Shown: piece after piece, positions 3,690 to 58,939 of the stretch | Position numbering within the stretch: the first letter of the stretch is position 1 | Layout of the letters: each line of letters begins with the position of its first letter | Assembly (NCBI GenBank): GCA_015231405.1 | Contig: JADGBR010000003.1 | Coordinates: 93,549 to 157,548, forward strand | DNA length: 64,000 nucleotides | DNA from: Candidatus Omnitrophota bacterium | GTDB taxonomy: Bacteria; Omnitrophota; Gorgyraeia; Tantalellales; Tantalellaceae | Direction: 5' to 3' | Program-made: the position numbers and the translations under genes | The notes under the pieces: model-generated | What the model saw: the letters and a program-made list of their open reading frames with translations, nothing else | Told to the model about the DNA's origin: nothing | The model's database searches: none

Positions 3690-3721
3690 ATAGAACTGGA
3701 TATCCGGATATAAAGTGGATA

Positions 3722-4372
3722 TTAAAAAGGCGACGGTTCTGGTTGTGGTTCAGGATCAGGCTGTGGTGTTGGAGTTGGAGTCGGCTCAGGATCGGGAACC
3801 GGAGTCGGATCGGGAACCGGAGTCGGATCGGGAACCGGAGTCGGATCGGGAGCCGGAGTCGGATCGGGAGCCGGAGTCGGATCGGGAGCCGGAGTCGGAT
3901 CGGGAGCCGGAGTCGGGTCAGGACCCGGAGAGTTATCTCTCATGACTCTTCCTCTATTTCCGGTAGTTTCCTTTCTGTCCGAGTCCTTATCGTGTCCATA
4001 CGGGGCGATCATCGCAACCTTTCCCATATTTCCTTGCTCACGCTTATCTCGAGGATGAAAACCCCAGTTAGATCTCATTTCTCGCATTTCTTTTACTTCG
4101 CCTCTTTCACTTCGATCAATATGTGACATTTCCTTACGATCTTGCACTATTTCTTTGCGTATTTCTTTGCGTATTTCTTTGTTTTCCCTGATACTTTCTC
4201 TGATCTCTTTCATCTCAGAACCTTTTCCATGATCCTCGTCATTACGCCCGTTATTTTCTTTAAGATCATTTTTATCATTCTTATCCTCTTTATCATTTTT
4301 CGCCAGACAAAACGAAATACTAAAAGAACATAAAAACCACCCCGCTAACATTATAATTAAAATCTTTTTCAT
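3722..4372 (-). CDS. secreted low-complexity protein: signal peptide, K/E/D/R-rich region and C-terminal (PDPTP[AV])n repeat tail
   Basis: On the minus strand, the ORF has a clear signal peptide (MKKILIIMLAGWFLCSFSISFCLA) and an RBS gagaggtga directly upstream. The C-terminal 60 aa are encoded by an 18-bp tandem repeat. The overlapping + strand ORFs (DREPES repeats) are frame artefacts of the same repeat. Confidence 0.6.
   Translation of the reverse strand: MKKILIIMLAGWFLCSFSISFCLAKNDKEDKNDKNDLKENNGRNDEDHGKGSEMKEIRESIRENKEIRKEIRKEIVQDRKEMSHIDRSERGEVKEMREMRSNWGFHPRDKREQGNMGKVAMIAPYGHDKDSDRKETTGNRGRVMRDNSPGPDPTPAPDPTPAPDPTPAPDPTPAPDPTPVPDPTPVPDPTPVPDPEPTPTPTPQPDPEPQPEPSPF
3789..3932. repeat. 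18-bp in-frame tandem repeat: ggatcggga[a/g]ccggagtc x7, plus one degenerate copy
   Basis: Counted directly from the sequence: three aacc units then four agcc units. It encodes TPVPDP/TPAPDP on the minus strand. Confidence 0.9.
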
Positions 4373-4647
4373 AGCTCACCTCTCAAGTTATACTAAGATA
4401 AAGTAAGAAATAACATAAAAACAATACTATCTAAATCTTTATACCTAACATTAAGTATACACTATTAGGAGGGTATATGCAACTTTCGAAAAAAAACCAT
4501 ACAGGTCCGATGAAAGTTTTCGATCGGTTTAATTTTCCTAAAGCCTAAGTCAGGACTGCCGAACTCGTCGAAAAAATTAACGCTGCCTGGATGGCGTTAA
4601 AAAAAACATAAGTTAAGATTATTAAAAGTAAATATTCTAGCGTGGTA

Positions 4648-4656
4648 TGTTATAAT
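4648..4656 (+). promoter_or_regulatory. possible extended -10 element (tgtTATAAT) in the AT-rich divergent intergenic region
   Basis: tggtatgttataatg lies 15 nt upstream of the ATG at 4672. There is no SD, so a leaderless or short-leader transcript is possible. It could also be a chance AT-rich match. Confidence 0.25.
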
Positions 4657-4671
4657 GTTGGCCTTATTATC

Positions 4672-37824: not shown

Positions 37825-40800
37825 ATGAATAACTTTAATAAACAATTAATACTAAGAATTATCTCCTTGTCCACCGCTATCGTATTTCTGTTCCAGAGTA
37901 CGGTATACGGGGAAGCTCCGGCAATTACGGAAAGGTCGATAGAAAAGATAATTATCCCGGGGGAACTGGCTTCTGTGAAAAGCTCGAGCTTCACGGGGGG
38001 CGGGGATATTATCGTCCATATACAGGACGCGCATTGCGATCTTAACGGACAGCTTGCCATATCCAAAATACTTGAATATCTGGAAAAGAGATACGCCCTT
38101 AAGGATATTTATCTTGAAGGAGGGTCCGGAGGGTATGACCTTTCGATATTTAAAAGCATAGCGGATACCGGTGTCAGGCGGCAGGTTTCGGAAAAGTTCC
38201 TTGCTATGGGAGAGATAAGTGCGGCGGAATATTACGCAGTGAACGCGGATATAGCGCCTCTCCTTCAAGGCGTCGAGGACCCTGAACTGTATATCAGGAA
38301 CCTCGACGTATACAGGGGATCAAAGCTATATCGTGATAAAGCCCTGGAAATAGTGAACGCGGCCGGCAAGCGTTTGGACGAGCTCAAAACCCGGATAATG
38401 GGAAAAGAGCTTTTGGAACTGGAAACAAAATACGCCGCTTATTCGAACGATTCTCTTAAGATCAGGGATTACCTGGCATATCTATTCGTCGCAGCCGCTA
38501 AAACCGGATGCGATATCGGCGGTCTTCCGGAAGGGATATCACGATTGAAGAGCGTTCTCGACTCTGAGGAAAAAGTCAATTTCGGCAAGGCCGAAATTGA
38601 CCGGGAAAAGCTTTTGGGCATTCTTTTGGCGAGGTTGCCAGAGACGCGGAAAGAAGATCTTGTAAGGATGGTAGTCGCCTTCAAGCGCGGGGAGATATCG
38701 GGAGCGGAGTTTTACGGGTACCTTACAAAGAGAGCCGAAGAATCCGGCGTGGACGTCTCGTCCCAAATGAAAGATCTCGTGGCCTATGCCGGGTATGTCA
38801 GGGATTACGCCGAAATAGACAGGTCTTCGATCATGGACGGTATCGAGGCTCTTAAGACCGCTATATCCGAAAAATTTATTACCCGGGATGAAGAAAGAAC
38901 GCTTATCCGGCTCGATGAAGGGTTCGGGATGATCAAAAAGATATTCAATTTCAGCGTAACGAGCTCGGAATACAAAAAAGCCCTTAGTATGGATATCGCT
39001 GAGATGTATGGGGAGCTAGAGGCGCTTAACGGGAAGGGAGAGAACTCCGTGGACGCTCCGGAGCTTAAAGACTATTTCGATAGGATCAAGCCTTTTTATG
39101 AACACTCACTTCGAAGGGATGAGGTATTCATTGGCAATATACCCAGTGGGAACAAAGGCTCAGCCCCCCGCGTCATCGCTCTCGTTACCGGAGGGTTCCA
39201 TTCGGAAAACCTGTATGAGTTATTCAAAAAAAGAGGGTTTTCATATATTTCTGTCATACCTGAATTTTCGATATCCGAAGGTGAGAACCGCTATTTTGAT
39301 ATCCTTTCGGGCGAACAGTGCGGGCTTTCAAAAAGGATAAGTGCGGCCGTATCGTCTCTTCAGGTGGCGAGCAAATTGAACTTAGGGCTTGGAACAAAAA
39401 TATGGGGCGAGAGGGGCATCGAGGATTTCGAGGCGGCGCTGTATACGGAAGCGCTGGCCGAAAGCGGGTACAGGGTAGAGATAACGGATGAAAGCACCGG
39501 GGAGGTCGTATTCTCTAACGGGGACGAAAAAAACACCCTAATAAAGATCGGCAAAAACCGATTTTTATCGGACGTCCATCAAGAGTTCATCGATAAGGTC
39601 ATGACGGAAGACGAGAAGAATTACCGTGACCTTAACCCTATGGAAAGAAGCGCGGCCGAAAGGGCAGTTAGAGATATTATCGCGATAATGCCGGATACCA
39701 CGACACAGGATAGATCGGCCCGGTCGTCAGTTGAGGGACTGCTTGGGGTTAAGGCGCTTACCGGAAAAGAAGGCATCCGCGTATCGCTGAAACTTGAAGA
39801 AAGTAGACGCGACGGGCATGCCGGGGGCTGGGGAATAAGGATACGTGAGGAGCTCACCGACGAAGACGCGGTCTATAAAGTGATAAGGCATGAGATCCTT
39901 GCGGGGTTACTCAGGAATCACTCTATGGTCGGGGCGGTCGAAGGGTTTATGGATACGGATGAAACCCAAAGCGCCAGGGCATTCATGGCCGACGCGGAGA
40001 ACCGGCATGAAGGGATGAATGCCCTGTGGGATATCGAAGACAACGCGCGGCATAACATCGAAAGGGATCATTCGACTAAGGGCGGCGAAAAAGAGATAAA
40101 GGACGAGGATGTGCGTGAAATACTCGCCGAAAGGAAGTTCCTTGAACCGTCCGAAAGAGAAGAGCTGGTCAGGTTCATTATGGGATTTCATAAAGATTAT
40201 GACAAATACCTGAGCGTGATGAGGTCGAATAGCCCGGATCCTGCTAGATATAAAATATCTATCAGGGAGATAAAACGGTTCGCCGTGGAGGTCGAGAGGA
40301 TATTTAAAAAAGTGCTGAGCGAGAAAGAGACACGCGTGGAAGCGCTTAGTGTCGCCCGCGGGCAGTCTCTTTTTAATGTATACCTGGATTTTGTGGCCGG
40401 TGACGAAATAGTGGAGGCGAATAGGCGTACAGGGTATAAATTCCCTGATGTGGAATTGGGAGTGTGGAGTCAGAACCTTATCACGAGCTATGGGGCAGCT
40501 GATCGTTATTATGTAGATGGCCTCGCGAGAAAAGGCGAACAATTCGATACTAATATTTTCCAGAACACTGAGAGGAAACTGGGATACGCCCTGGAAAGCG
40601 GCATGCCGTCGCTTTTTATCAAGAACGATAACTCCCTTGGGGCCTTCGAGCAAGCGCTTTCAAAATATGTTTCCGAGAACAACGCCGAACTCCATTCCAT
40701 GCAGTGCACCCCATACAGCGACACGACCCAGCTCCTTGGCGGATATGTCCCCCGGGAAAGGGTGAATAAGGGCGAGGCGTACAAAATAATAGAGGGGATA

Positions 40801-43800
40801 ATAGGGGATGACGCCGAGATACGCGGAATACTCGAAAAACTCCTTTCGAGAGAACCCCTCGATAAGGAAATACGGGATTTTAAGGAACTATACGCTAAAA
40901 AAGAAGCCGACGGGTTAATTATAGCCGCGGCGATGGTCAAAAAGAACCCGGATAACTGGCGGAAGAAGCTGGTTTACGAAAAGGGGCTATTGGCCCGTAT
41001 CATCGAAAAATGCAATAAGGAGGGTGGTAAGACATTTATCCTTAACCTTGAGAACGTCGAGGCCCTGCCCGGGAGGGTGCGAGCCCAGCTTAATACGTTC
41101 CTACTTAACGGCGAAATGAGAGTTCCCGGGGCGGACTCGGAAGAGATGCGAAAACTGGTCATGCCGTCTAACCTCAGGATAATAGCGACGATGGGCGAAG
41201 GGTCGGTCCTCGAGGACGGAGCTTTTTATGACAGGTTCGTGAGGAAAAGCGTCGGCGAATGCGATCCCGGAGATCTCAGGGAAGCTATCGAGCGGGACTA
41301 TCCCGGCTTTCCGGAAAGCGTTGTCAAATTGCTCATAATAACATATCACAAATTCAGGGAAAAAGGGATCGAATGCACTGCCAGGGATTTTTTGAATATC
41401 TCGGGTTATGTGTACGGGAGAGCGAAAAACGGGAGTGTCCAAAAAATGTTCAAAGCAGCGGTGGAGGAGATCATCGGCTATTTTACCGTAAGGGACGAAA
41501 ACAGGTATTCATTCACCGATTACGCCGTGGAAATAGAAGCGGCGGCCGAAAATAGCTTTGACGCAAATTTTCTCAGGAAAGTCGGCCCGTCCATCAGGGA
41601 GATGGACCCGTTTGAGATAAAGATAGAATATTCCAAGGGAAGAAAAGAGCTGGTGGTGAACGGGATAGGCCTCCCGGTCAGAAAGGAGATGGGGTCTGCC
41701 ATGCAAGGGGTCATAGACGCCATGAATAAAGCGTCGGAAGGGTTGCCTGAAGAGTTGGCGATAAAACAGGCCCTTGTTGACGAGCTGGATTTTGTGCTCA
41801 CAAAAGATTCAAAAAAGATGTTATGGGCCGTCGCGCGCGCGTATAAGTACGGCAACGGTTTCGTCTGCCTCGAGGGTGTTACCGGAGCAGGTAAGACTTA
41901 TACCGCCGAGATGCTGAGTAAACTCATAGATTTCAAGCGTCCCCAAGGTGAAAGCCGTTTTTACTCCGAACCCGTCGACGCCCAGACGAAAATATCCAGG
42001 TATGTCGGCATGTTCAGGACGGATGAATACGGCTACTATTCGCTCGATAAGACAACCCCTTTCCTCGATATCATAGAGAACGGCGGCGTCGCGGCCATAT
42101 CCGAGATGAACACGGCCGTCAAGGACGACTACGCCAAGCTCGGCTGGTGGTTCAACCAGTTCGCCCGCGGCGACGAAGTCATTTCATTGACGGAATACCC
42201 GGGTTACGGCCCTCTCGGGGCGATGAGCCGTACGGTGAAGAGAAACCCGAGATGTATAGTGATCGTCGACATCAACCCCGAGGATTATGAGGCGAGGGGA
42301 AAACTTCCGGAGGAATTGAGGTCTTATGCCCAAAGGGTATCGGTATCCAAGACCGAAAATAAAGATGACCTTGAATTCGCCGCGTGGGCCTTTCTTAAAC
42401 AGATAACGGATGATAGGAAACGCTGGGCCATTGCTAAACAATTAGCTCTTTATCATCAGGCGCTGGAGGCTGAAGTGATAGCCGCCAATGGAAGAGGTGA
42501 AAGGCATCCGCCGTTAAGTTTCAGGGAGCTTAAAAGGATTTGTAAGGGCGTGAATAATGACTCTGACGTCTTTGCCGCTATAAAAGATGTAAGGGCCCTG
42601 ATCGGGAAGTACTATATCCCGGCGTTCAGGTCAAAAGAAAAACAAGCTGAACTGAGAGACCAGTTCGGAATAAAGGACTATAGCCCTGAAAAAGTGGTAG
42701 AAGAGCTTATTCTCGCTCCGGCCGGAGAAAGGTCCCCTCCGGCGATGGTATTTACATCCGCCGAAGACGATCCGATGGCGGAGCTTGATACCATTACAAA
42801 AGATAAGGACATGGTCACCGTTGAAAAGACTTTGATCACACTTTTTATCGACGAGTTTAAACTTTTGGGCGGATATGTGCCGGTCTCTAACGACTTAACC
42901 CCTGAAAAAGCGGCTGAGCGCATCGGCGTATACTCGAAAGAAGCTCCGGAAAATATAGGATATCTGGGGGAACTATTTCAGGAAATCGCCCAAAAACCTC
43001 TTCCCGCAGATCTGGAACAACTTACCCATCCTGAAGTGCTGAGTCTCGCCGCTGCCCTGGATTCGCTCCGAAACGGCCGTGACTGGCGCGAAAAACTGCG
43101 TTGGGAAAGAGGGATAATACCTCGTCTGATGAAAGAAGCGAGAGAAAACCCAACCAGGACATACATTCTCGCCCTCGAGAATTTTCACAGGATCCGCCCG
43201 GGCGTGGCCGTAGCCTTGAACAGCATCCTCCAGGAAGGCGAATATTACGACCCGGTCTCGAAAAAGAAAGAGACCGTTCCGCCTAACCTCAGGTTCTACG
43301 CGACCGCGATAGAGGAAGCCGAGCTCCCCATATCCATGGCGGAGGAATCGAGGTGGGTGAGGATACATAAGGGGATGAAAACTCAGGGTGAAAAGAAAAG
43401 TGAATTGATCGAATATGCCCGGAAACTCGTTTTGGAAAAGATCAACGCCGGGGAACTACAGTTTGTCGGTAATTATTCCCCCATTGGGTTTACTCGTAGT
43501 GAACAGGCTTTAACCGTGTCTGAAACGATCGTCAGTTCCATCGGAGATGAATTCTTGGAGCTATTCAATGTACCGCAACATAAGGAATACATAGATTCCG
43601 TTATAAACCAGGCTTTTTCTGAAGGGCCGGTAACTACCTCTGAGAGGTGGATTTATGCCCAAAGAATGAGCAAGTATTTGGTATATGGGGCTGCGATGAA
43701 AGCATCTGATAAAGCGGAACATTTTGAAAAAGGTAAACCTTCGCTATGTCCGAGATTATCCGAAAAGGATCAAGACATAAATCTATACGCCATTAAAATG

Positions 43801-46800
43801 TCCAAGAGAAGGATGGAGTGGCGTATTTATGCCGAATTCATCGAATTGTTCGATAGGAACTTTTTCGATTACATAAGCGAAATAAAAGATATGATGTCCA
43901 TGCCTGATATTCTTGCTTGCGTAGACGGGATAATTGAAGAATACGCTGAATATCATGAAAGTCTGAAACCCGGTATGGTCATTGGTAACTATGATTTATT
44001 GCAGAAAATATCGTTAAGGCAGATCAATAAATACATAAGCCGCAACTGTTTTGATAATAATCTTGCTGATAAAACCCCTATGGCAGGCTCGACAGCTAAT
44101 CTCCTCGAAGAAGTCGACGAACTCGTCGAGATCGAAGCCGCTACCTTCCAGGCTTTCAAGAACGGCAAAGTCGTCATTTACGAAGGCGCTCCCGGCGGCG
44201 GCAAGACCGACATGGGTATAGACGTAGCGAACCGCATGGGCCTTAAGAACTTCGTCTATTCCTGCCATGGGAGAGTTCACTCATCTGACCTTCTCGGCGG
44301 GTTCAGACAGGACAAAAGGGGCAATTTCATTTTTACCGGCGAGCCGGACGACGCCGGCAATTTTAAATATAACCCGTTCCTCCAAATGCTCACCCACGGA
44401 GGCGTATTCATATTCGACGAAGGGGCCATAGGCAAAAGGTCACAGGAACTTCTCAGTCTCCTCTCTGGCATCGCGAGGGGCGATAAAGACTTCTTCGTTA
44501 ACGAGCTCCCCGGAAAACCGGCGAGAAAACTTGAGGTCCATAAAGATTTTCACATAATAATTACGATGAACCCCGCCGAAGATACTCCCGGCCGCGAGCC
44601 ACTGCCGCTCGAACTCTATAACCACGCGAGAAGGATCTGGGTGCCGGGGAAAATGTCGGAAGAGTCTTACCGGAAGATAATCACGCGCTTCTTCAAAGAC
44701 GCTTGCGCCAGAAATAAAGTAAACCCTGAGGATATCTTCGCCTCCAACGAAAAAAGCCGCAAAATGTTCTCGGACCTCATAACCGAGATCCATTTCATCA
44801 TCAACGAAATGGTAGGCGAAAGCGTGAGCCTTGAAGAGAGCACAAACCTTCATCTTCTTACACTCAGAGATATGAAGAAACTGGTTAAAGACTTCGTGAA
44901 ACTCTACGCCGCCGGGGTGGATAAAACGGAAGCGCTGAGGCTAGCCATAAGAACAGAATACTTAAGTCAGTTCGACGCGAGATCCGACCGCAACCTCATC
45001 AAGCTCCGTCTCGACGGTACTTTCCTCGGCGCCGGCAAAAAGGAGATGGCCGACCAATTCCAAACCGAAAAAATATACCTGGGGACGGTGATATCGACCA
45101 TGGGGAAACCAGTCGACCCGGAGACGCTTAAGCTGATAGACAGGAAACGGCAAAAACAAGGTGAGCTGCAAACTCCCGGAATGAGGACGGAAAAACCATT
45201 ATCTCCATTTGAGCCCGGTAATGTTGCCCGCCTCCCCGGCGACGTTTTAAAGAAGCCCGCCAGATTCGCGAAAGACTGGCGGGAGATAAATGGGGATCCG
45301 GGTATCGATCAGGGACGGGAACGGGGGACGGTCGAGGTGGCCGAAGAGAAGTCTTTGGCGCTTTTTGACAGGTTCAGCCCTACCGACGGTGAAGCGGTCT
45401 ATTGGAAGGAAACAGCGAAGGATCGTATAGCCACACCCCAGACCGTTGTTCCGCTAGAAGGCCCGGGTGAACTACCAGCCGATCTGGATACCCGAATGGC
45501 ATTCGAGCAAAAAGCCTTTACCTATAGTGAGACTGTTCCCGAGATCATCGCGGGAAAGTTGGGCGAGGGTAAGGGCGTTATGAACGCTTTATACTCCGAA
45601 TGGTCAATTACGGAACTTTACAAGACATTGAAGATTGGAGATAAGCGTGTTACGGGTATAGAGGTAATAGAGATCGGAGGCGAAGAATGCCTGGTCACAT
45701 CGGCCGGTAAGGCTGTTCAGGTGTGGCGGAAGACGCCCTCGGGATGGGATGTAACGACGCTTCTCGGGAGTACCCGGGGTATCAACGTTTTAAGAACGAT
45801 AAAGCGCGGCGGTAAAACATGCATAGTGACAGGTTCTGTCTCTGGTCTAGTGATGATGTGGGAACCGGACGGAGGCGGGTGGAAAGCTACTCGGTTATAC
45901 GGCTATGCCGGCAATGACGTAACAGCTTTAGCCGTTATGAGGAGAGTTGTCGACGGAGAGGAAAAAGAATGCCTGGTTACCGGCGGAAGTGACGGGAAGA
46001 TCTATCTATACGAGGAAGGTAAAGACGGGTGGGGATACACTTGTTTTAAAGTGGGATCGGAGCCTATACTCAGTCTGGAAGTCATGAAATTTAAAGACAA
46101 GGGTAACAGTATTGTAGCGGCCGGCGGATACGGTACCGTAAAGGCTCTATATTCTCCTGGCGGGAATGACTGGGCCGGGGAGTATGTTTTCAGCGAGAGG
46201 TGGTCTACGGGATCTTTTATCTGCCCCGATAAAACTGAGAACGGAACGTTTTTTACGAGCGGGTACGTCGATAATGTGACGGATATGTCGGGTGTCTGGC
46301 GCTTCGAGCCGGGCGCGACGGACAATGCGGGTGTTATTTACGACGCACATGCTAAAGGAGCCGTCCGGGACATGAAAGGATTCGGGCTTAACGGTGAAAA
46401 TATGTACGTTTCGGCGGGTCTTGACGGTAGGATCATATTATGGAAAGAGGCAAAAGAGAAACCCGCTTCCGGTGAACAGCCGTCGCTTATGCCGATAAAC
46501 GTCCTCTTTGAAAAAGAAGACGTAAAGTTCAATAAACTCCTGGTCACCGACATCGAGATAGGAGGTAAATCACGGAAATGCGTCCTCGCCGGGACCACGA
46601 CCGGCGAGGTCATGATCTTCAACCTCGAGCAGGAGAAGTATATCGAGGAGAACAAGCGGCGCCTCGCTCCGGAGGATCCGGAAGCCGCTCTGCCCGTGCC
46701 GGAAAAGCCCGAACTCCCGTACGGTTTGGGCGAAGAAGCTATTTTCAGGCCTACTGAATTCGCGGATGCGGGGCGGATATTCGATAGGGAGATAACGGGG

Positions 46801-49800
46801 GATGAGATAGACGCGATGAGTGCCGGACTGGTCGCGAAGGCCGGGCGAATGGTGTCGAAAGAGGTCCCTTCAAGAAGCGTAACGGGCGGAGCGGATATGC
46901 CCCGTCAAAAAGACATTGCATGCTATAAAACTGACGAATTCGAGGATGCTTTAGGTGCTCCTGTGGAAGAGAAAGCGTCCTTTTCTGATATGCCGGATGA
47001 CATGGAAGGGTTAATGGATGGAGAGAAATACTTCATGTATATTGAGCGGAATAAATACGCGGACGTCTTGAAAAATACGACTTTTAGACAAAAAGATAAA
47101 AGATTAAGCGAGCTGATCAATAAAATAGACCTGAAATGCAAAGTTAGCGGCATCAAGGTGTTTAAGGTCGGGAGCAAAGAGTGTATCGCTTATAGCGATT
47201 ATAACGGATGGTTAAGGATAATCGATTTCTCTACAGGGACGGTGCTGAACATAAAAGCCAATTCATCGATCATTTGCGGTATTTACAGCATGGAAATATT
47301 ACAACACGGAGATGAGACCGTCATAGTTACCTCCGGCGAGAAGAATAAACTTCGCAGATGGTCGATGACTGAAAAAGGGCTTACCGAAGGGAAAGTCACC
47401 GTCAGGAGTATGGATATATATACAGGGGAAATACCGATACGCAAAATGCGAAAGGGCGGGAAAGAATGTATCGTTGTCTGCGGAAGGGACAATACGATAA
47501 TGATCATTGAAGAGTTCGTTCAAGAAGATAATGCCGGGCGTGTAGTGGATAAGATAAAACGAACGATACTCGCGTCCAGGAATTGGCAGCTTAATCGTTT
47601 TTCTGTTTTGGAAGAGCTTGACGGTAACGACAGTATTGTCGCTTCTCATTCGACTCACACCGGGCAGCCTGACGGGGCTGACGCGTTGTGTCTGTGGAGT
47701 AATACCGGGGACGGATGGGATATGAAAATGATCGAGCCGGTGGATGGTTCGGGGAATGAAGTTAAAAGGCAAAATGATGTCCCGTTCATCGAGGGTGAAG
47801 AATGCCAGCTCCTGGACACGATATCGCTTTCCGGGGGTGGCAATAACTTGATAGTTACGGCTCCCAAGGATCCGGGCAATGAGATACTCGCTAAACATCT
47901 CAGGATATACAAAATGGACGGGAAAAGCGGTTGGGAAGTAATGAATTTATACGGTGTATTTGAAGGATACACAGCTCCCTCGGGACGTGATCTGATCGGA
48001 AAGGTTCAAAATGTGAAAACAGTCAAAGCCGGCGGGAGATCGTACGTTTTGATCAACGATATTCTTCAAAATCTGAGAGTTTGTGATTTTGCCTCGAATA
48101 CGGTCAGAATTTTGGAAATAGTCGATGAAGATCAGCTACATTGGAATTCAATAGTAGGAGCCGAGGGAATGGAGACGGGGGGATTATTAGTGACTTGTTC
48201 GAATGGAGGCGAACTGAAATTCTGGGACTTAAACCTTCAAGATAAAATAAAATACGAGAAAGTTGCCGTCGCGGCTGCGAAGTCGGGGTCGGGTGAGGGT
48301 GATGCCTTTCCTTCTCCTTCCGATGAAGCGTATCCCGAGATCGAGCTTCCGGAAGAGCCGGCTATTAACGAGACGCGTCTTGCGCTGAAACTTTCCGGGC
48401 GGGTGCTGCTTATCGCGCAGCCGGGGGCTAGGGAGAAGGTTATCGTTGATGAATCGGCGAAGCGCGAAGGGATAAAGGACGTGTATTCCATTGAAGGCAG
48501 TCCGTCGCTCACCGTTTTCGATATGTTCGGCGGGCTTTTTCCTCTGCTTGAGGGTGAGGAAAGGCCGTCCGGGGAGGATCTGGTCTTTAAAAAAGGATTT
48601 TTCACAAGGCACATGATCACCGAGGAGGAATATCTTAGGGATTACGGCGAGGATGACGAGCCCCGGCTTCTTGTCATACACAATATTGACGCCGTGCCCG
48701 AGAAAGTCAGGGCGGCGGTCAATAATCTTCTCCTTAACGGCTTCATAGAGATACCCGGCGAGGGTGAGAACGGCCGGCTTTATCTTCCGGAGAACATAAA
48801 GATCATAGCCACGATAAACGCTAACAGCCAGCGGGATTTCTCGAGCGCTTTCCCAAACAGGTTTACCCGGGTCAACGCATCGGAAATGGAAACGTCGCCT
48901 TACTGGCTTAGCCAGTTCGTTCAATATGTGATGAGGGTTTACGGGTTCGATAATGAGCTGGCCGGAAGCATCGAGATGGTGCATTGCATGATAAAAAGGC
49001 TGGAGGACGGAGGCAGTTTCTGGCCTTCGGGTTACGTGTACGGGTTCACGGTCAAAGACGCTTTGACGGCGGCGAAATTCATTTCGCTCGGGCTAAAAGA
49101 AAGGGCAATGTTAGGGCAGGCTGTTACTAAGAAGGATGAGACGGAAATAGCCGTAAGGGAGATCATCAGGGCTTACGGTTTACGTCTTAAACAGAGCGAT
49201 AAAGATTATGACAATTTTGTGGACCTGATCCTGAAGAGGATATTCGACCACGATAAAGATATGGTCGACGCCGTTTCGGGCGAGATAAGGATATCCGGCG
49301 GGAAATTGTCATCCATATCGGATATCCCGGTGAACCCGACCCAGAAAGGTAAACACCCGTACGCGATAGACAAGAATTACAGGCTGACCATGGTGAAAAG
49401 CATCGTCCGTACCATATCCGGCGTTCTACGCGGATTCCAGGCCGGGAAGATCGTCTCCCTGACCGGCGAAACCGGCGTCGCCAAGACCACGATAGGAGTC
49501 GCGCTCGCTGAAAGCCTGGGGATGGATAGCTATGTCTTCAGCATGCATAAAGATGTTAAGTCTTACGATTTTACGGCAGGTATCAGGGCGACAGATGCCG
49601 GTCAGTACCGGCTTGACTTGTCGGATTTCGCCGAAAAATTAAAGTCCGGGAACACCGTCCTTGTTGTCGACGAAGCTAACATTAAACCCGAGATATTATG
49701 GATACTCTCAGGGATCGCCCGCGGCGAGAGGAAATTCTCCATCGAAGTGCCCGGAGAAAAGCCTATAGAATTCCGGCTCGGAGATAACATATATATCCTC

Positions 49801-52800
49801 TTTACGATGAATCCCGAGGATTACGAAGGCGGAAGGGATATCATCCCACAGCCTGTCAAGGAGGATATATTCAATATATGGGCCCCGTCGGAGTATCCGG
49901 ACCCGGAGCTTACGGCGATCGTCAACGAGTTCTTCGACGGGTATAGCGTTCTTGATAATATTAAGGAGGAAAAAAAGAAGGAAGAGATAGAAGGCATGGA
50001 TCTGGACGAGAGGATGCTCCGGCTTTTCAAATACTTGCGCCATGGCTACGCTCTTACGACCATAGAGGATATCGTCGCCTCTATAGAAGAGAAAGGTTTT
50101 AAGGCCGCGCTTATGGAATATCTCGCTGTAAAGCCGGCGGACGATACTAGAGAGGCTAAAAAAGCGGCAAGGAAAGAGGCCAAGGCGCGAAGAATAGAGC
50201 TCAAATCTATCGAGAAAGAAATGCTGGAACGCGGCGAGGTCAAAACGAAGATGGACAAAATAAGGTTCCTCGTCAAATCCTCATGGGATATTCAGAAAGA
50301 CTTGAACGACGAGGACGAGGTCGAGATAAAATTCAGTCTATTCACGTGGTGGAGCACGACGGTCGTGGAAAGGACGCGCGCCGGAGGGAGGGTTAAGGTC
50401 CGGGTAATTTATGTGCCTTTATATGAGCTTGTGAAGAGGAAGGGCGAGCCGGGAGCCGCACCAAAAGAGAAAAGCGAGGGGGTCATTGCCGCGGTTATTC
50501 TTCACGAGTTCAGGCACAAACTGTACTCACCCAGGTCCGAAGAATATCGGGATGAGATCAAACCGTTGTTGGAGGGGTCTCTTACCCCCGAAGAAATGGA
50601 GTTTTTCGCAAATCTTACCCGAGAGAAACAGAAGATCGACGGCGAGTTCATGGGGTTTGATAACCTGATCGAGGATATAAGGATAAATAACATAGAGAAC
50701 CCGAGACTGAAAGGGGAAAAAAGGCTTTTTAACGCGCTCTTGGAACATCAGTACGGGAATATCCTTGTTCCGGAGCCGGATATGCTCCCGAATATATTTG
50801 AGCGGGCGCAAATGGCGCCGCATACATTACTGCACGATGATCTTCTCGCCTATGGCGCTTTCGGACGGCACAGCTGGTATTTTGATTCGCTTCCGGACGA
50901 GCTAAGGGAGGATATAAGGAGCTTGACCGACGGCCCGGATTCTCCGGTTTACAGGGCTACACTCCATAGATCGGTAAAACCGGATCTCACAGGCGTCAAA
51001 AGTCACTTCGATATGAAAAAAGAAAAACTGAGAGCCGAGGCTGAACGGATCAAAGTTTTTCTTAAGGAGATAAACCCGGTTTTCCAGAAATGGCTTAAAA
51101 GAGCCGCGGAGGCCCCCAAAGATGGAGAAGCCGGCAAGGGAGGCGCGGGCGGAGCCCAGGGAGTGCCTTCGTTCATAGACCTCCCTCCGGAGTTCGCGGA
51201 TATGTTCGATAAGCCTGAAGGCGGCGAGGGAGAGGAAGGGTCAGAAGGCGGATCCAGCGTGAATATCGTGGGTGAGGATGGATCCCGGGAGGAATTAGGT
51301 GAGGGTGATGGGGAGGGGGCCGAAGAAGGCGAAGCGGATGGAACGGAAACCCCCGGAGGAATAGAAGAAGCTACTCCTTCCGCCGGTAACCCTGACCATA
51401 CTGAAGAAGGTGAAAAAGCCTCGGGCTCCGCAAAGCCGCCGCTACCCGGTGAAGGCGGCGAGGAGCCTTCGAGAGGCGACAAGTTCGACAAGAGCGTTAA
51501 GGATATCGAGAAGAAAAGGAAGGAAGAGCTTAAACAGGAGCCTTTCAACGAGCGTTTGACGGAAGTGAGTGAGGTGGCGAAAAGGCTGGCCAAAGGGTTT
51601 ATAAATATTTTCCGCGTGCCGGGCGAGCCGGATGTTGAGGAGACCCCCTTCGGCCGCATTATAAACGCCGTGCGTTATATCATCGGCAGCAATGTTCCGT
51701 TCGACGAAGACGCCGATACTTTGGGCGCGCCCGACCTCGCGTTCGGCATGACTATCGACGCGAGCGGAAGCATGGTAGACGCTTACCCGGCGCTTAAACG
51801 CCTGAGCGCTATACTCTTATCCGCTTTTCAGCAGATAGGTAATAAGGCGGAACTGTCCATCACGATGGATAATAAGGAAGTATCGACCATAAAAAGTTTC
51901 AGCCAGAAATTCAAGCAGGAACACCTTAACGCCATGCAGACAAAAATAGAGGATAAAATAGGGGAGGGCGGTAACGGCATACATCTCTACGACACGATGA
52001 TGGAGATAATCAATAAGTATAAAGGGTGCAGGAAGAATAATAAGCTGGAGGTGATATTTACCGACGCGGGCGATACGGGTAAGGATCTGTACCTGGATCG
52101 TGGCGGGAAATTGTGCTGCACCGAAAGGCTGGACGAAGCTTTCAAAAAAGCGAAAAGCATGGGGATAACTATTATCGGCGTAGGTTTTGGCGACAGTTAT
52201 GTCGAGGTTTTTGATAGTTACCTTAACCTCAATAAGGACAATGTCGACGCCATAGTCGGCGCGATGCTATCCATAGGGAGCGTCAAAGCCAAAACCGGTA
52301 AAGTCCCGTCGGGTGACCTTTCGGAAGTACTTGACCTCGGGAAAAGCGGGACTTTGAAAAGCGGGGCATCCGGGAGATCAAGGCTTTCGGGGGAAAGGAA
52401 ATATACGGTCGTAAAGATGAGCGAAGCGCCGAAAGCGAATAATTTATCCGAAACTCGTAACTTATCGACGACTGTCTCCCCGCGGACAAAGGCTATGTCC
52501 GAACTATGGAAGAACATGACAAGGGATATAGTCATCCTTCCCGAGACCGAACTTTACACTTCCGACGAAATGGGCGCGAGGAAAAACGCTAGAGTACTCG
52601 ATAAAAAATACGCTCAGACCACCGTTACGTTCGGGTACGCCTATAACGGTGATTGGAAAAATAACCTGAAGGGCGTAATGGAGAAAGCAAAAGAACAGCT
52701 ATCCGGAGACCTCGCGAAGGGTGATTCCAAGACCAGGGCGATAGTGTATGTGCCGGAAGAGGCTGACGGTGATCTCATGGAAGCCATGTTCGGCGAGCTG

Positions 52801-53593: not shown

Positions 53594-56500
53594 ATGAGAA
53601 ACTTCGCTATACTACTGTTAATATCCTTCATTATCCTCGCAGCGTCGAGCGTGTCGTTCTCTGCCGAAGAATTAAAAACCGTTGAGTTGTACGGCGTCCA
53701 GGGTGACGTGCAGATATTCAAATCGGAGGATCAGACCTGGCACCCCGGGAGTTTGGGGATGAAGCTCATGCCGGGGTATAAGATAAAGACATTAGCCGAC
53801 TCTTACGCCGAGATATCCTTTGACCCAGAAAAAAAAGCGCGTATGCGCGTTGACCCCAATAGTGATCTTGTTGTGACTTTGGACAATGACCAGAAAGTTT
53901 TTCTCATGAACGGCGCGGTATTCACTAAGATCATGAAACTTGAACCCGGCCGTAAGTTTGAAGTGAGAACGCCGACAGCCGCGATAGGCGCACGCGGGAC
54001 AGGGTGGGGCACGGAGACTAACGGCGAGTGGACTAAGGCTGAGGCTTTTGAGAACGATATCTATATACGCGGCGTTGATGAGTCAGGCGAGCCCGGTGAG
54101 GAAGAAACGACGCTCAGCGAAGGCGATAAGATGACCGTCGACGAGGGCGGAGAGTTTTCAGAACCCGAAAAAATGACGGAAGAGGACGCCGCCCGCTGGG
54201 ACCAGGGGCGCGAGGACTTTGTCGGTGAAACGGTAAAGGAATTCCTGGAGACGTCCGGCGAAGAGGAAGGCGAGGAAAAGAAAGAGGAAGAGGAGGAAAA
54301 GGCGGCAGAAGAAGAAAAGGCTCCGGAAGAGGAAAAACCGGCCGAGAATGAAAAATCGGCTGAGGAGCAAAAAGGAGAGGATGAAGGCGCTTCTGACGAT
54401 AAAGGCGGATATGAAGGCGACGGTTCGAGCGATACGGGAGGTTTCGGCGATATAACGAACGACGATCCGAATAACTATAAGCCCGATGACGGTACAAATG
54501 ACAACGGCGGGGATAACGGTGGCGGGAGTCAGGTAACTGAATATTACGCCTACATATGCAATGCCAGCGACGTTATTGCCGTGAATTTATCGAACAGTTA
54601 TTCTACTGTAGGGCGGGTAAGCGGTCTTGCTAACCCGTCAGGAATAGTTGCGAATCCAACAGGTGATAAGGTGTGGTTCGTGGATACCAGTGGCGTTAAA
54701 ATCGTTGATAGAGCACAATTTGATAATGGTCATAAAACGAGTGTTGCCTTAACCAATGCTCGAAACATCGCGTTTTATCAAAGCGATGTCTATGTTGCAG
54801 TATATGAACCCGACCCTACTTCTACAGGGATCGATATCGCGAAAGTGGATGCTAATAGTACGATTCCATTGGCAACCCCGTTTGTCCAGCAAGAGCGGTT
54901 GCGGAACGCATCTGGGATCGCAGTTAATTCGGATGGAACATTTATTTATGCTTTGGGAACGGATAAAGATAATATGAATAAGCCGGCATTGTTCAAATTG
55001 GCTCGCGATACAGGGTCTATTCAGTCGACATCCGCGTCGTTGGCAACAGCTACTCCGTTTGATCTTGCTTATGTGCCCGGAAGCGAGCGTATTCTTGTGA
55101 CCTCCGAGCCTACAACCGGTGTAGGGATGGGTGGGTATCTGGATATTTTCGACAAGGATTGTTCCCCCGTATCCATTAATATCCAGGTTTCCGCTGTTGC
55201 CAATAATGGTCGGCGGGCCATAGCGATATCACCTGATGAAAAATTCGCCTATGTCGCGAGTGTGGATGATAATTCAGTTGCGCTTGTTGACTTAAGCGAT
55301 AACAGTATGATTAAATTAAAAGATCCTAATTATTACCAGTTCAATGCCCCTTCTGGTGTAGCGGTGCTTCCGGATGATAGTGGAAGTAAGATCTATGTGA
55401 CAAACAGCGGGAACAATACGATCACGGTTATCGATAGAACCGGTGATATTCACACTCAGGAAACAATTATTGATTTAGTGACCATCCCGGGATTGAGTTC
55501 TCCCGGTGACATATGCGTAGTTAAAGTGGCGACAACTCAGACCATCACCAAAACCTGCAACAAAAAACAAGCGAGCGTCGGAGATATCCTGACCTATACG
55601 CTTGACGTCCATAATGGTGAGGCGCAGTCCATGTCGAACGTTGTGGTCGCTGACGTAATGCCGGGGGCGTTCACATACATACAAGGCAGCGCTTTCGACC
55701 AGGACAGGAACGCTATACAGACTATGGTCGAAGGGAATAAACTTACCTTCAAGATCAACAGCCTCGCCGTCGGAGAACGCCAGTTCATTAAATACTCCGT
55801 GGTTGTCAATCCGGGCGTTATAGAAGGTGACTATGTCAATACCGCGTCAGCCTCCTCCACTCTCGCTAACGGGACAGCCTATAACTTCAACGTTTCAAAA
55901 TGCAGGGTCACTATCATTCCCGATCCACTGTTCGACGAAGGCACGATAATGGGCAAGGTGTTCTCGGACGGAAACGGTAACGGCGTCCAGGATAAAGGCG
56001 AGAAAGGCCTGCCGTTCGTAAGGCTTATGATGGAGGACGGTACGGCGGTCGTGACGGATAAATACGGTAAATACCATATCCCGGCGGTATACCCGACGAC
56101 GCATTTACTGAAAATTGACAAGAGTACTCTGCCGACAAACTCGGTCGTTACGACAGAATCGACGAGGACCATAAGGATGACCAATGGTCTCCTCGCTAAA
56201 GAGAGTTTCGGCGTTAAAGTTAACGAGAATACGCCAGGCGTAATTATCCCCATGCCGTCGAGGCCATTGGCGCCGAGAGAGGATAATCCCCTCCCTGGCT
56301 TATTCGAAAAATTCTCGATGGTGGCTTTGACTGAAGGCGAGGCTGTGGGATATCGTACTGAAGACGCCGCGGAGACATTAAAGAACGACGGCCGTTTCAA
56401 GAACATGGTCCATTATGACGGCCGTCTGGCGTATAACCTGGACGCGGTGGTGAAAGGCGATTACAAGGTGACGTCGTCCCTTGATACCGAAAGGAAGAAT

Positions 56501-58939
56501 AGATACCTTTTCAGGAACCTCGACCCGGATAAATATTACCCGACCTACGGCGACGATTCACAAATAGACTATTCCTCTACCAATACTTCGGGAGACCTGT
56601 ACCTAAAGGTAGCCAAAGACAGATCGTACGGGCTATTCGGCAATTACCGTACGGACCTCGGCTGGCCGTCCCTGGCGAAATACGACAAGACTCTGTACGG
56701 CGGCAAACTGAATATCGAGTCCAAGGAGAAGACGGCGTATAAGGACCCGATATACAAGGCGAAGGGCTTTATCGCCGAGGAGAAGAACGTAGCGGCGTTC
56801 GCGCGGTTCAGGGCGACTGGCACGTCGCTGTATTACCTGAAACATAACAACATAGTCGAAGGCTCGGAAACTCTTACCATGGAAGTGCAGGACAGGCTGT
56901 CGTCGCTGACGGTAAAGTCGGTGACCCTGTCGAGGGCGGATTACGACATAGATTATGACCGGGGTCGTATCATCCTCAAAAAGCCGGTACAAAGCGTGCA
57001 CGACTCGGGATCTATCATCTCGGACGCCATAAATAACGGCAACCCGGTGCATATGAACGTAGCGTACGAGTACGCGCCCGAGACGATGTCGAACGACAGG
57101 AATAACGGCGGAAGTTTCAGCATATCTCCGGTTAACGGTCTCATATTGGGCGGTACCTGCGTCGAGGAAAGGCGCGACGGAGCGGATTATGAGCTCGAGG
57201 GAGCGGGTGCGACCCTTAAGCTGAACGAGAACACTCAAATTTCCTGCGAGGCAGCCCAGAGTTACAGGCAGCAGTTGTCGATATGGTCGTCGAATAACGG
57301 GGGGCTTGATTTCAGCGACACGCCGATGGGCGAGACGGATTCGGGCAGGGCGTATTCGGTAAGCGGTAACTCGAAGCTCATGGATAAGATGCCGGCGACG
57401 GCGTATTACAAATTCGTCGACCAGAGTTTTTCGAACACGTCGGTCGTGAGCACCCAGGGCAAGGAAACGATCGGCGGCGGGATAGGTATTCCCGTGAACG
57501 ATAAGTTAAGGTTAGGGGTGCGGGAGGACGTCGCGAGGTCGCTTCGTCCGGAGCTCCTAAGCGTATCGAGCGACCAGAAAGGCCGGCTTGTGTATACGAG
57601 CACGGCGACGGCTGATTATAAAGCCACCGAGAAACTCGATCTGGCCGGGGAATACAGGTACGACAAGTCCGATGACGTGTCGTCCACGTTTTACCAGCGG
57701 GATATGCAGGCATTGGCCGGAAAAGCTTCTTACAAGGTGAACGACCGTCTGACGCTCATAACGCGTGACCAGATAACGCTGGAAGGTAAGGAGAATAACC
57801 AGGTAAGCGGGGGGTTCGGGTATAAGGCGGACGATAAGACGAACGTATCCATAATGGAAACGGTCGGGAATAGGGGAGACGGGACATTGCTGGGTATATC
57901 AAGGACGTTCAACGAGACGGACGAAATATACATGAATTATGACCTTCTGGATACCGGGACCAGGTCGGTGGTAGGCGATTCCCGGAAGTTTGATGAGACG
58001 ACACAAATAAGGAGGGAATCGTCAAAGTTCCAGGGTACCGGCCCCGGCCGGGATTCGGGATATCGCGACACATCTCTTTATGCTGAGGAAGAGGAAGGGG
58101 GGGATGGTTCGGGAGATCTTGTCTCAATGTCTAAGGAGATCAACCCGGGATCGACGGTTACCGGTGATTATGAACGGAGCCAGTTCTATAATAAAGGATA
58201 CTATACGACGCGTGACGCGGTAGCTGCGGGATACAGGAGTAAGCTGTCTGAGAAACTTGAATATTCGGTCAAAGGCGAATACTGGTACGACAAGAGCAGT
58301 AACGGTAAGGATTACCAGATCGGATCATACAATAATCTGAAATGGCTGATCGACCGGGACACGACGCTTAAAGCGAAAGCGTATTACGGCATAACGTTCG
58401 ACGACCTCATCTCGTCGAGAAGCGCGGAGTTCGGTGAGTTCGTTGTGGGCATGGGATACAGGCCGATAGACTATGACCGGTTCAACGCGCTAACACAATA
58501 CAAGTATCTATTGGACCAGCGTCCGCCGTCGCAGTATGGGATATTGAACGGTATAAAAGAAGACCGGGCGCATATAGCGAGTATCGAAGGCGCATACGAT
58601 ATAAACAGATATTTCCAGATAGTCGAGAAAGAAGCCGGGAAAGTTGTCGTGGACAAATGCGCGTCCGATAAACTGACGGTAGTCTATACGAATCTCATCG
58701 TGAACAGGCTGAATTATCATATAGACGACCAGTGGAATATCGGCGCCGAATACCGGATACTTTCGGAATTCGTCACCAAGACCCATAGGACCGGAGTTTA
58801 CGTCGAACTCGACCGCAACATAACGAAATTCATGCAGGTAGCCGTTGGTTACAACTTCGCCGATTTCGACGACGAGCTCACCTTGAACCGAGGCTATACC
58901 TACCAGGGCTGGACGGCGAAACTACGCGGGAAGTATTAG
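53594..58939 (+). CDS. large multidomain surface/outer-membrane protein: signal peptide, FecR domain, E/K-acidic and G/D-rich low-complexity tracts, YVTN-type beta-propeller, DUF11, SdrD-B-like (Cna-B) domain, and a long C-terminal putative beta-barrel region
   Basis: Signal MRNFAILLLISFIILAASSVSFSA. FecR-like LYGVQGDVQIF...W.PGSLGMKLMPGYKIKTLADSYAEISF...RVDPNSDLVV. YVTN-like repeats (KVWFVDTSG.., FIYALGTD.., FAYVASVDDNSVALVDL, KIYVTNSGNNTITVID). DUF11 TITKTC..VGDILTYTLDVHN...VVVADVMPGAFTY. SdrD-B-like GKVFSDGNGNGVQDKGEKGLPFVRLMMEDGTAVVTDKYGKYHI. The C-terminus ends ...GWTAKLRGKY. Confidence 0.8.
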   Translation: MRNFAILLLISFIILAASSVSFSAEELKTVELYGVQGDVQIFKSEDQTWHPGSLGMKLMPGYKIKTLADSYAEISFDPEKKARMRVDPNSDLVVTLDNDQKVFLMNGAVFTKIMKLEPGRKFEVRTPTAAIGARGTGWGTETNGEWTKAEAFENDIYIRGVDESGEPGEEETTLSEGDKMTVDEGGEFSEPEKMTEEDAARWDQGREDFVGETVKEFLETSGEEEGEEKKEEEEEKAAEEEKAPEEEKPAENEKSAEEQKGEDEGASDDKGGYEGDGSSDTGGFGDITNDDPNNYKPDDGTNDNGGDNGGGSQVTEYYAYICNASDVIAVNLSNSYSTVGRVSGLANPSGIVANPTGDKVWFVDTSGVKIVDRAQFDNGHKTSVALTNARNIAFYQSDVYVAVYEPDPTSTGIDIAKVDANSTIPLATPFVQQERLRNASGIAVNSDGTFIYALGTDKDNMNKPALFKLARDTGSIQSTSASLATATPFDLAYVPGSERILVTSEPTTGVGMGGYLDIFDKDCSPVSINIQVSAVANNGRRAIAISPDEKFAYVASVDDNSVALVDLSDNSMIKLKDPNYYQFNAPSGVAVLPDDSGSKIYVTNSGNNTITVIDRTGDIHTQETIIDLVTIPGLSSPGDICVVKVATTQTITKTCNKKQASVGDILTYTLDVHNGEAQSMSNVVVADVMPGAFTYIQGSAFDQDRNAIQTMVEGNKLTFKINSLAVGERQFIKYSVVVNPGVIEGDYVNTASASSTLANGTAYNFNVSKCRVTIIPDPLFDEGTIMGKVFSDGNGNGVQDKGEKGLPFVRLMMEDGTAVVTDKYGKYHIPAVYPTTHLLKIDKSTLPTNSVVTTESTRTIRMTNGLLAKESFGVKVNENTPGVIIPMPSRPLAPREDNPLPGLFEKFSMVALTEGEAVGYRTEDAAETLKNDGRFKNMVHYDGRLAYNLDAVVKGDYKVTSSLDTERKNRYLFRNLDPDKYYPTYGDDSQIDYSSTNTSGDLYLKVAKDRSYGLFGNYRTDLGWPSLAKYDKTLYGGKLNIESKEKTAYKDPIYKAKGFIAEEKNVAAFARFRATGTSLYYLKHNNIVEGSETLTMEVQDRLSSLTVKSVTLSRADYDIDYDRGRIILKKPVQSVHDSGSIISDAINNGNPVHMNVAYEYAPETMSNDRNNGGSFSISPVNGLILGGTCVEERRDGADYELEGAGATLKLNENTQISCEAAQSYRQQLSIWSSNNGGLDFSDTPMGETDSGRAYSVSGNSKLMDKMPATAYYKFVDQSFSNTSVVSTQGKETIGGGIGIPVNDKLRLGVREDVARSLRPELLSVSSDQKGRLVYTSTATADYKATEKLDLAGEYRYDKSDDVSSTFYQRDMQALAGKASYKVNDRLTLITRDQITLEGKENNQVSGGFGYKADDKTNVSIMETVGNRGDGTLLGISRTFNETDEIYMNYDLLDTGTRSVVGDSRKFDETTQIRRESSKFQGTGPGRDSGYRDTSLYAEEEEGGDGSGDLVSMSKEINPGSTVTGDYERSQFYNKGYYTTRDAVAAGYRSKLSEKLEYSVKGEYWYDKSSNGKDYQIGSYNNLKWLIDRDTTLKAKAYYGITFDDLISSRSAEFGEFVVGMGYRPIDYDRFNALTQYKYLLDQRPPSQYGILNGIKEDRAHIASIEGAYDINRYFQIVEKEAGKVVVDKCASDKLTVVYTNLIVNRLNYHIDDQWNIGAEYRILSEFVTKTHRTGVYVELDRNITKFMQVAVGYNFADFDDELTLNRGYTYQGWTAKLRGKY

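Follow-up and report, generated by a model that had tools for sequence, protein, structure and literature searches.

The 64,000-nucleotide stretch of contig JADGBR010000003.1 of a Candidatus Omnitrophota bacterium analysed here (the window) contains a giant open reading frame (ORF) of 5112 codons, whose product carries six AAA+ ATPase modules of two alternating kinds in a single chain. The order is O1-E2-O3-E4-O5-E6, the odd-numbered (O) modules being degenerate and the even-numbered (E) ones carrying ATP-site motifs, and a VWA domain with an intact MIDAS (metal-ion-dependent adhesion site) lies beyond them. The same order recurs in 34 full-length homologues and many fragments, far beyond what chance would produce; the dead/live alternation is a family trait and not the quirk of a single gene. 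We consider it probable that the protein is a single-chain, midasin-like AAA+ machine, with an alternating live/dead ring, a lid that clasps it shut and a tethered MIDAS.

An earlier note on this DNA had proposed that the AAA modules come as three pairs, each of one degenerate and one active module, and this is confirmed: all six motifs lie where the note had placed them and in one ORF, from nucleotide 41020, the first base of 'EGGKT', to shortly before nucleotide 49700, which falls just past the Walker B of the last module. Compared pairwise, modules 1/3/5 and 2/4/6 form two clades, both by BLASTP within the protein and by hhalign of family profiles. The BLASTP E values among the degenerate modules are 2e-13 (1-3), 5e-12 (1-5) and 0.01 (3-5), and among the active ones 2e-10 (2-4), 4e-6 (2-6) and 2e-24 (4-6), while every odd-even pair stays above 0.2; the corresponding hhalign scores are 140-190 for O-O, 184-305 for E-E and 32-68 for O-E comparisons. 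Taken singly, module 6 passes the Pfam AAA_5 model, modules 1 and 3 reach about 16 bits and module 2 12 bits, module 4 gives a faint AAA_6 match only, and module 5 gives no match; since most of the modules thus lie below threshold, Pfam alone would miscount them. Hidden Markov models (HMMs) built from the three O and three E modules found no further copy of either kind in the 5112 amino acids (aa), and profile comparison of the 330 aa flanking the ring on each side gave no seventh ATPase module. The count of six, which cryptic modules might have changed, therefore stands, with one extra piece consisting of a lid alone. An apparent extra module after E6 (an 85% match to the E6 profile) was rejected as an artefact, the query segment having overlapped the E6 alignment.

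Some particulars of the earlier description change on closer comparison. The GGKT at about residue 1075 is indeed present (EGGKT, 1074-1078, followed by FILNLEN, 1079-1085), but it is not a P-loop: it directly precedes the Walker B strand, the true P-loop position of O1 is at residues 937-953, and the motif is not kept in homologues (P0002 ends 'NKDKEFILNLEN', and the segment of P0004 reads 'KDTTYIFNIEN'). The substitution in the Walker B of the degenerate modules, given as Asp to Asn, is in fact a change from Asp-Glu to (Glu/Asp/His)-Asn, in which it is the catalytic glutamate that becomes asparagine. Module 2, described as active, does have its Walker A and catalytic glutamate, though its Walker B is a non-canonical Ser-Glu (AAISEMN).

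The degenerate modules are complete AAA+ modules by both hhalign and an AlphaFold2 model, which disposes of the possibility, raised in the earlier note, that they are not AAA folds. Compared with profiles of midasin modules, those of the family's O1, O3 and O5 give hhalign probabilities of 96-100%. The O1 profile matches midasin AAA3 at 99.5% over 240 columns, in an alignment that starts at the beta-1 strand, takes in the decayed P-loop, the Walker B and sensor-1 strands and the finger helix, and extends into the lid; those of O3 and O5 match midasin modules at 96-99%. The model covers residues 930-1939 (O1-E2-O3), was computed from an alignment of 11 sequences, and has a mean predicted local distance difference test score (pLDDT) of 78 and a predicted template modelling score (pTM) of 0.71, the beta-alpha-beta pattern in O1 and O3 being modelled at pLDDT 80-95. 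In Foldseek comparisons it aligns over about 1150 columns both with dynein AAA2-AAA4 (7mi3; E value 3e-19, TMq 0.51) and with the Rea1 ring (6i27; TMq 0.54), so that three consecutive modules are predicted to form the same arc as in known single-chain rings.

Word-indexed searches with residues 901-2450 and with a profile of the three O+E units returned two fragments only, and exhaustive HMMER was used instead. With the three-unit profile it found 2039 proteins at E values of 1e-3 or below, 348 of them at 1e-30 or below. Module orders were read in the best 150 matches after two rounds of O and E HMMs. Among these, 34 full-length proteins of 2800-6900 aa have the order O-E-O-E-O-E, with several dozen alternating fragments besides, and 65 proteins have six E-type modules in a row; of the latter, two with named sources are insect midasins and one comes from a Thermoproteota archaeon. 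The named members of the O/E family belong to Omnitrophota, except for one from a Chlamydiota metagenome-assembled genome (MAG) and one from an Elusimicrobia MAG. The family is diverse, with at least 34 clusters below 50% identity, and its members are about 20-45% identical to one another. Neighbour-joining trees group all 34 members in one pure clade for each of the six positions, which places the six-module layout before the diversification of the family. No relative turned up when GTDB genome contigs were scanned with module E4.

The MAG from which the window comes has at least four paralogues of the family, the giant ORF included. Three of them, P0004 (MBF0215721.1), P0049 (MBF0215716.1) and P0008 (MBF0215528.1), of 6162, 5055 and 4144 aa respectively, lie on one 491-kb contig, and two of these have accession numbers five apart. 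The archaeal protein mentioned above, P0058 (MFC1753351.1, 4005 aa), has six E-type modules and a C-terminal VWA domain at residues 3818-3999, and represents a second prokaryotic kind of six-module-plus-VWA protein, one without dead/live alternation.

Residue frequencies among the 34 full-length homologues, each taken from a different cluster at 50% identity, separate the two kinds of module at every element of the ATP site. The Walker A lysine, the catalytic glutamate of Walker B and the sensor-1 asparagine are each present at 100% in E2, E4 and E6. O1, O3 and O5 are without a P-loop, have asparagine in place of the catalytic glutamate (in 91, 76 and 61% of members, respectively) and do not conserve the sensor-1 residue. 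The first acidic position of Walker B is Asp at 100% in E4 and E6, Ser at 79% in E2 and variable in the three O modules. The arginine of a (D/S/N)-R-F motif, on the other hand, belongs to the O modules, being found at 100% in O1, 85% in O3 and 100% in O5, and the same column holds no Arg in the E modules (Tyr at 29% in E2, Asn at 29% in E4, Asp at 20% in E6). It aligns with the N-R-F arginine of midasin, which is R in 78-100% of AAA2-6, and is the counterpart of the SRF arginine finger in MCM. For Rea1 the rule is that the finger of site i comes from helix H4 of module i+1, as with H4 of AAA5 and the AAA4 site (PMC6286127). Applied to the motif pattern of the O and E modules, this rule puts the live sites at E2/O3, E4/O5 and E6/O1, three predicted composite sites that alternate with three dead interfaces. 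The O/E interfaces would then have no catalytic element at all: the O side has lost P-loop, glutamate and sensor 1, and the E side offers no arginine finger. As for the pairs of the earlier note, the fingers put the functional ATP sites between them, each formed by an E module with the next O module, and not inside them. The least canonical site, that of E2 with its Ser-Glu, is also the one paired with the least conserved finger, that of O3.

Taken together with the folds, this arrangement suggests how the machine may work. The six AAA_5-type modules most likely fold into one hexameric ring, with ATP bound and hydrolysed at E2, E4 and E6 only and each live site relying on the next O module for an SRF-type arginine finger in trans. 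The O/E interfaces would probably be fixed joints, and the ring a trimer of rigid O.E bodies that flexes where the three ATP sites lie. The presumed role of the O modules is that of finger donors and scaffolds. That they are not inert, and bind a ligand or nucleotide through non-canonical loops in a regulatory capacity as the alpha subunits of F1 do, can hardly be expected: they do retain the full fold and position-specific conservation, and the O5 consensus keeps a Gly-Ala-Arg (E-x-G-A-R) at the P-loop position, but the absence of the Walker A lysine from all three O positions, the loss of sensor 1 and the want of an arginine finger on the adjoining E modules all speak against it.

Of particular interest for the closure of such a ring is an orphan E-type AAA lid ('lid 0') upstream of O1, which includes a sensor-2-like motif, ISIREIKRF, at residues 819-827. 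In hhalign comparisons, the 330 aa that precede O1 gave 95% with the lid part of the E4 profile, 92.6% with the E2 profile and 96.4%, over 106 columns, with the lid-only E2/E4 profile. The sensor-2-like lid arginine is present in the upstream lid of 34 of 34 members, in 100% of E2 lids and in 85% of E4 lids, and the pattern [ST]xR[ED][LIM]x[RK] occurs in the window protein at exactly three sites, residues 820, 1573 and 2354. At the other end of the array the lid is missing: the matches of E2 and E4 to the E model run on to about position 311 of 314, while those of E6 end near 231 and only 2 of the 34 members have an E6 that reaches 90% of the model, so that E6 is without an E-type lid. A lidless E6 together with an E-type lid upstream of O1 means that the encoded repeat is an E lid, an O large domain with its lid and an E large domain, three times over. 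The earlier note's threefold repeat of a two-module unit is in this respect upheld and its frame shifted. The unit is about 780 aa long by estimated boundaries, and its third copy is broken by a propeller insert of about 1000 aa. The hhalign score orders of O1/O3/O5 and of E2/E4/E6 are not congruent in either frame, a mismatch of branching that is likely due to unequal rates, with O3 the fastest. The triplication may have arisen within this lineage, or it may come from a midasin-like ancestor. The ring would be closed by the upstream E-type lid, which would replace the one missing from E6. In Rea1 the lid of AAA6 is absent as well, and the N-terminal domain occupies its place (PMC6286127).

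The lid bears also on whether the modules of one chain form a ring at all. They could instead act as separate O+E pairs, or join with those of other chains in mixed or stacked rings in the manner of the magnesium chelatase BchI/BchD, whose active AAA+ ring is paired with a degenerate AAA+-VWA subunit, and the layout of degenerate AAA module, acidic linker and VWA domain recalls BchD, in which all three are found in one subunit. We think this unlikely. The insert of about 1000 aa does part E4 from O5, and the modelled arc does consist of three modules only. Against these points, there are exactly six modules in each of 34 diverged homologues, connectors between modules are short apart from the large inserts, the modelled arc overlays the rings of dynein and Rea1, which are single-chain, and an orphan lid at one end and a lidless E6 at the other make sense only if the two ends meet.

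Several domains surround the six modules. A VWA domain follows the ring in 33 of the 34 members, the exception being a truncated protein, at a distance from E6 that is usually about 435-610 aa and is 544 aa in the window protein; the MIDAS residues D.SGS and TDG are conserved at 80% or more, and the modelled fold matches, among other VWA domains, that of NorD and the MIDAS of human MDN1. The acidic tether that precedes it is short, about 100 aa, with 37% Asp plus Glu in its best 60-aa window. Nearer the ring, the post-ring domain contains an HExxH motif (HEFRH, residues 4235-4239, window 50503-50517). Of 32 family members, 21 have the pattern HE[LIFM][GR]H, against a chance expectation of about 0.01 per sequence, and the modelled HExxH helix follows a three-stranded sheet, which is the layout of a zinc metallopeptidase. 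The HExxH domain matches no Pfam family, and a fold search with the model of linker plus VWA gave VWA matches only; it is at most a candidate peptidase. Force from the ring would be passed to the VWA/MIDAS through the 544-aa linker, which includes this domain and the acidic disordered stretch, and the MIDAS may use its metal site to grip the substrate that is pulled, much as happens in midasin and in the MoxR-VWA systems. Docking is the likely role of the WD40 propellers that lie within the ring. They reach 27.8 bits with Pfam WD40, match several other propeller families, and appear by eye to be two propellers. Insert content was examined in two proteins, that of the window and P0013, the latter with WD40-like repeats in the stretch from E2 to O3, and the inserts look like swapped-in cargo or docking modules. 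In other members the large insert lies between O3 and E4 or is absent (P0010, P0013, P0020-P0031, P0035 and P0037 were compared).

Several points weigh against the alternating ring as the working form of the protein. The identities of the modules, their motifs and folds, the conservation in the family and the VWA domain are direct results, and the structural model covers three consecutive modules; the closure of the six-module ring, the geometry of fingers acting in trans, the lid clasp and the pulling of a substrate we infer. The propellers break the ring between E4 and O5. With Ser in place of Asp in its Walker B, E2 may bind ATP and hydrolyse it poorly, which would leave two fully canonical sites. 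The genes flanking the giant ORF, and those at one homologue locus examined, are unrelated housekeeping genes. Finally, the protein begins like a secreted one, with basic residues, a hydrophobic core and then 'VYG-EA', and the beginning is similar in about 20 of the 34 members. If this segment were cleaved and the protein exported, the ATPase would end up where no ATP exists, and the signal-like N-terminus cannot be reconciled with the proposed function unless the segment stays uncleaved as an anchor or the protein does its work in another cell's cytoplasm. Some family members have several transmembrane-like segments.

Midasin is by far the closest solved relative, and the likeness to midasin and dynein rings noted earlier is apt. 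Searched against all PDB sequences, the O1-E2-O3 profile matches yeast Rea1 at an E value of 3e-48 and Schizosaccharomyces pombe Mdn1 at 5e-40, followed by dynein (5e-11), McrB (4e-8) and Lon and Clp (about 1e-6); NorQ, CbbQ and RavA are not among the best 60 matches. E6 alone matches S. pombe midasin at 2.8e-12, and its Walker A consensus, GETGx(A/G)KTT, corresponds to the GETGxGKTT of midasin AAA2 and AAA4. The plan is also similar, with six AAA_5-type modules per chain, some of them with degenerate sites, then a linker, an acidic stretch and, at the C-terminus, a MIDAS/VWA domain, and midasin AAA6 resembles the O modules in the Asp-Asn of its Walker B. The differences are nonetheless considerable. 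Midasin has four consecutive active sites, AAA2-5 (PMC6286127), where the bacterial family has three that alternate with dead ones; all of its modules keep the Walker A lysine (89-100%), which the O modules of the family never have; its linker of about 1700 aa, from the ring to the D/E-rich region, is absent here, the distance from E6 to the VWA domain being only 544 aa; its N-terminal domain is not detectably related; and it has no counterpart of the ring-inserted propellers, the HExxH motif or the signal-like N-terminus. The host being bacterial, the midasin substrates Rsa4 and Ytm1 (on pre-60S particles) are not known there. The active-site pattern, the unlike N-terminal and linker domains and the bacterial host lead us to treat this as a distinct bacterial family built on the midasin plan and not as midasin proper.

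The modules of midasin and of the bacterial family were also compared one by one. In hhalign comparisons with midasin module profiles built from P0058-P0151, the O profiles score 96-164 with AAA1/3/5 and 71-113 with AAA2/4/6. Midasin's own modules show a related tendency, their four highest-scoring pairs being 2-4 (504), 3-5 (490), 1-3 (394) and 2-6 (393), against 266-388 for mixed pairs. HMMER places O1 and the start of E2 collinear with AAA1 and the start of AAA2 of Rea1, and also places O1-E2-O3 on Rea1 residues 1489-2229, which we read as a parity-shifted match (approximately AAA4-AAA6). No one-to-one positional orthology with midasin AAA1-6 was found by hhalign or HMMER; the similarity in parity hints at a two-module ancestry common to midasin and the bacterial family.

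The same results bear on whether the family descends from a eukaryotic midasin, acquired horizontally and since diverged, in which the alternation would be a secondary decay of a once all-active ring. The close sequence relationship, the identical order of ring, linker, acidic stretch and MIDAS, and the fact that midasin AAA6 too is lidless with an Asp-Asn Walker B (PMC6286127) would agree with such an origin. We find it very unlikely all the same, since the lack of one-to-one correspondence is joined by other evidence: the midasin N-terminal domain, tried as a homologue of the orphan lid and pre-O1 region, was rejected at an hhalign probability of 0.1%; the post-ring region of the family matched only 2 of the 65 six-E-type proteins; the family is deeply diversified, through several phyla and with multiple paralogues in one MAG; and all six positions were already distinct in its ancestor.

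Other systems resemble a midasin-like bacterial machine of this kind in particular respects. Dynein too is a single-chain ring of six modules, some live and some dead, and its linker carries a lid-like remnant before AAA1 (PMC4047620), but its dead sites lie together (AAA5/6), it has a stalk with a microtubule-binding domain and no VWA domain, and the sequence similarity is much weaker. The MoxR-VWA systems (NorQ/NorD, CbbQ/CbbO and RavA/ViaA) and the magnesium chelatase BchI/BchD likewise combine a ring of the helix-2-insert clade with a VWA/MIDAS partner; these systems, however, are single-module homo-hexamers with a separate VWA protein, whereas the present protein unites six differentiated modules and a VWA domain in one chain. 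NorQ matches module 4 at an E value of 0.03. In the alpha3beta3 (A3B3) assembly of F1/V1-ATPase, alternating subunits, of which the non-catalytic one gives the arginine finger, form three live and three dead interfaces. The likeness to F1 is thus one of working principle, the alternation of catalytic and non-catalytic units, and not of homology: F1 consists of separate polypeptides of RecA-like fold, its non-catalytic sites bind nucleotide and its output is a rotary shaft. In RNF213 (mysterin) a minority of the AAA sites are active; it is a eukaryotic E3 ligase with adjacent active sites and no VWA domain. RNF213 shares with the present family a giant single-chain, dynein-like core of six AAA modules (PMC7311170).

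Table 1. Features of the giant ORF and its product (window positions in nucleotides; all on the + strand)
Feature	Residues (aa)	Window position	Motifs and remarks	Basis
Giant ORF	5112 aa	37801..53139	GTG start	ORF and database match
Signal-peptide-like N-terminal segment	16-31	37846..37893	Hydrophobic; LILRIISLSTAIVFLF	Sequence
Orphan E-type AAA lid ('lid 0')	~751-860	40051..40380	Upstream of O1	hhalign
O1, degenerate AAA+ module	~930-1260	40588..41580	P-loop remnant 937-953; Walker-B-like FILNLEN 1079-1085; Arg finger FYDRFVRK 1142-1149	BLASTP, profiles, AlphaFold2 model
E2, ATP-site module	~1310-1640	41728..42720	Walker A GVTGAGKT 1359-1366; Walker B AAISEMN (Ser-Glu) 1430-1437; sensor 1 INP 1491-1493; lid motif LSFRELKR 1572-1579	BLASTP, profiles, AlphaFold2 model
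O3, degenerate AAA+ module	~1645-1960	42733..43680	YILALEN 1788-1794; Arg finger EESRWVRI 1848-1855	BLASTP, profiles, AlphaFold2 model
E4, ATP-site module	~2080-2420	44038..45060	GAPGGGKT 2129-2136; VFIFDEG 2202-2208; sensor 1 TMNP; lid motif LTLRDMKK 2353-2360	BLASTP, profiles
WD40-like beta-propeller region	~880 aa	45598..48240	Between E4 lid and O5	Pfam
O5, degenerate AAA+ module	~3510-3790	48328..49170	P-loop remnant QPGAREK; LLVIHNID 3623-3630; Arg finger FPNRFTRV 3684-3691	BLASTP, profiles
E6, ATP-site module, large domain only	~3840-4080	49318..50040	GETGVAKT 3889-3896; VLVVDEAN 3953-3960 (49657-49680); sensor 1 TMNP; no E-type lid	Pfam AAA_5, 32 bits
Post-ring helical/sheet domain		50134..51111		No Pfam match
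Disordered Gly/Asp/Glu-rich tether		51118..51480		pLDDT < 40
VWA domain, intact MIDAS	4621-4849	51661..52347	DASGS 4653-4657; TDAGD	

The coordinates of the features are collected in Table 1. In the databases the giant ORF is represented by MBF0215968.1, which is annotated as 'AAA family ATPase [Candidatus Omnitrophota bacterium]' and lies on a MAG contig of 178 kb; its NCBI start lies 8 codons later and the two are identical from residue 9 on. The neighbours in the window (nadA and genes for aspartate dehydrogenase, glutamate synthase and CTP synthase, and dnaE) are ordinary bacterial housekeeping genes, and no conserved gene neighbourhood was seen in the window or at the single homologue locus examined (L001). 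Downstream, at 53594-58939, lies a gene for a protein of 1781 aa with FecR, DUF11, lactonase-like beta-propeller, SdrD-B-like and BBP2 porin-like domains, which resembles an outer-membrane-anchored surface protein; a link to the giant ATPase is not established. Elsewhere in the window, a 1456-aa protein (4642-9012) has two MutS domain V stretches (147 bits) and a weak AAA_22 match, an unusual double MutS-ATPase architecture, and a 564-aa ORF (1995-3689) has no Pfam match at E values of 0.001 or below.

The six-tandem AAA+ protein has been placed in early eukaryotic evolution, as a derivative of single-module bacterial MoxR ATPases (PMC3495828), and dynein and midasin have been called unusual for having all six modules in one chain (PMC4047620). 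No description of a bacterial midasin-like six-AAA family was found in the searchable literature, though an earlier mention may exist. In two papers on giant proteins of Omnitrophota (bioRxiv 10.1101/2023.11.21.568195 and PMC10066038) the family is not described, AAA_5 appearing in one figure legend only, and in PMC11573180 'midasin' appears only as a eukaryotic protein. The odd/even similarity of midasin modules may likewise have been reported before.

These observations allow the tentative suggestion that single-chain six-AAA+ rings with a tethered MIDAS were not a eukaryotic invention, that the bacterial family and archaeal proteins like P0058 are sisters or precursors of midasin and dynein, and that the parity seen in midasin is a relic of an ancestral odd-plus-even cassette. 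If so, the bacterial family would have pushed that cassette to full dead/live specialisation. With a bacterial family that has the whole plan of ring, tether and MIDAS, the origins of these motors become testable with real prokaryotic sequences. The family would also be a natural experiment, a covalent ring with exactly three alternating live sites, in which the alpha3beta3 logic of F1 is found inside an AAA+ ring. As such it may offer a simplified setting in which to ask what number of sites a ring motor requires and by what means these communicate, with the permuted lid as a possible clasp. For the Omnitrophota themselves, a class of whose giant proteins is now annotated only as 'AAA family ATPase', with homologues labelled 'MoxR-like ATPase' by JGI, the family gives a first handle on these proteins.

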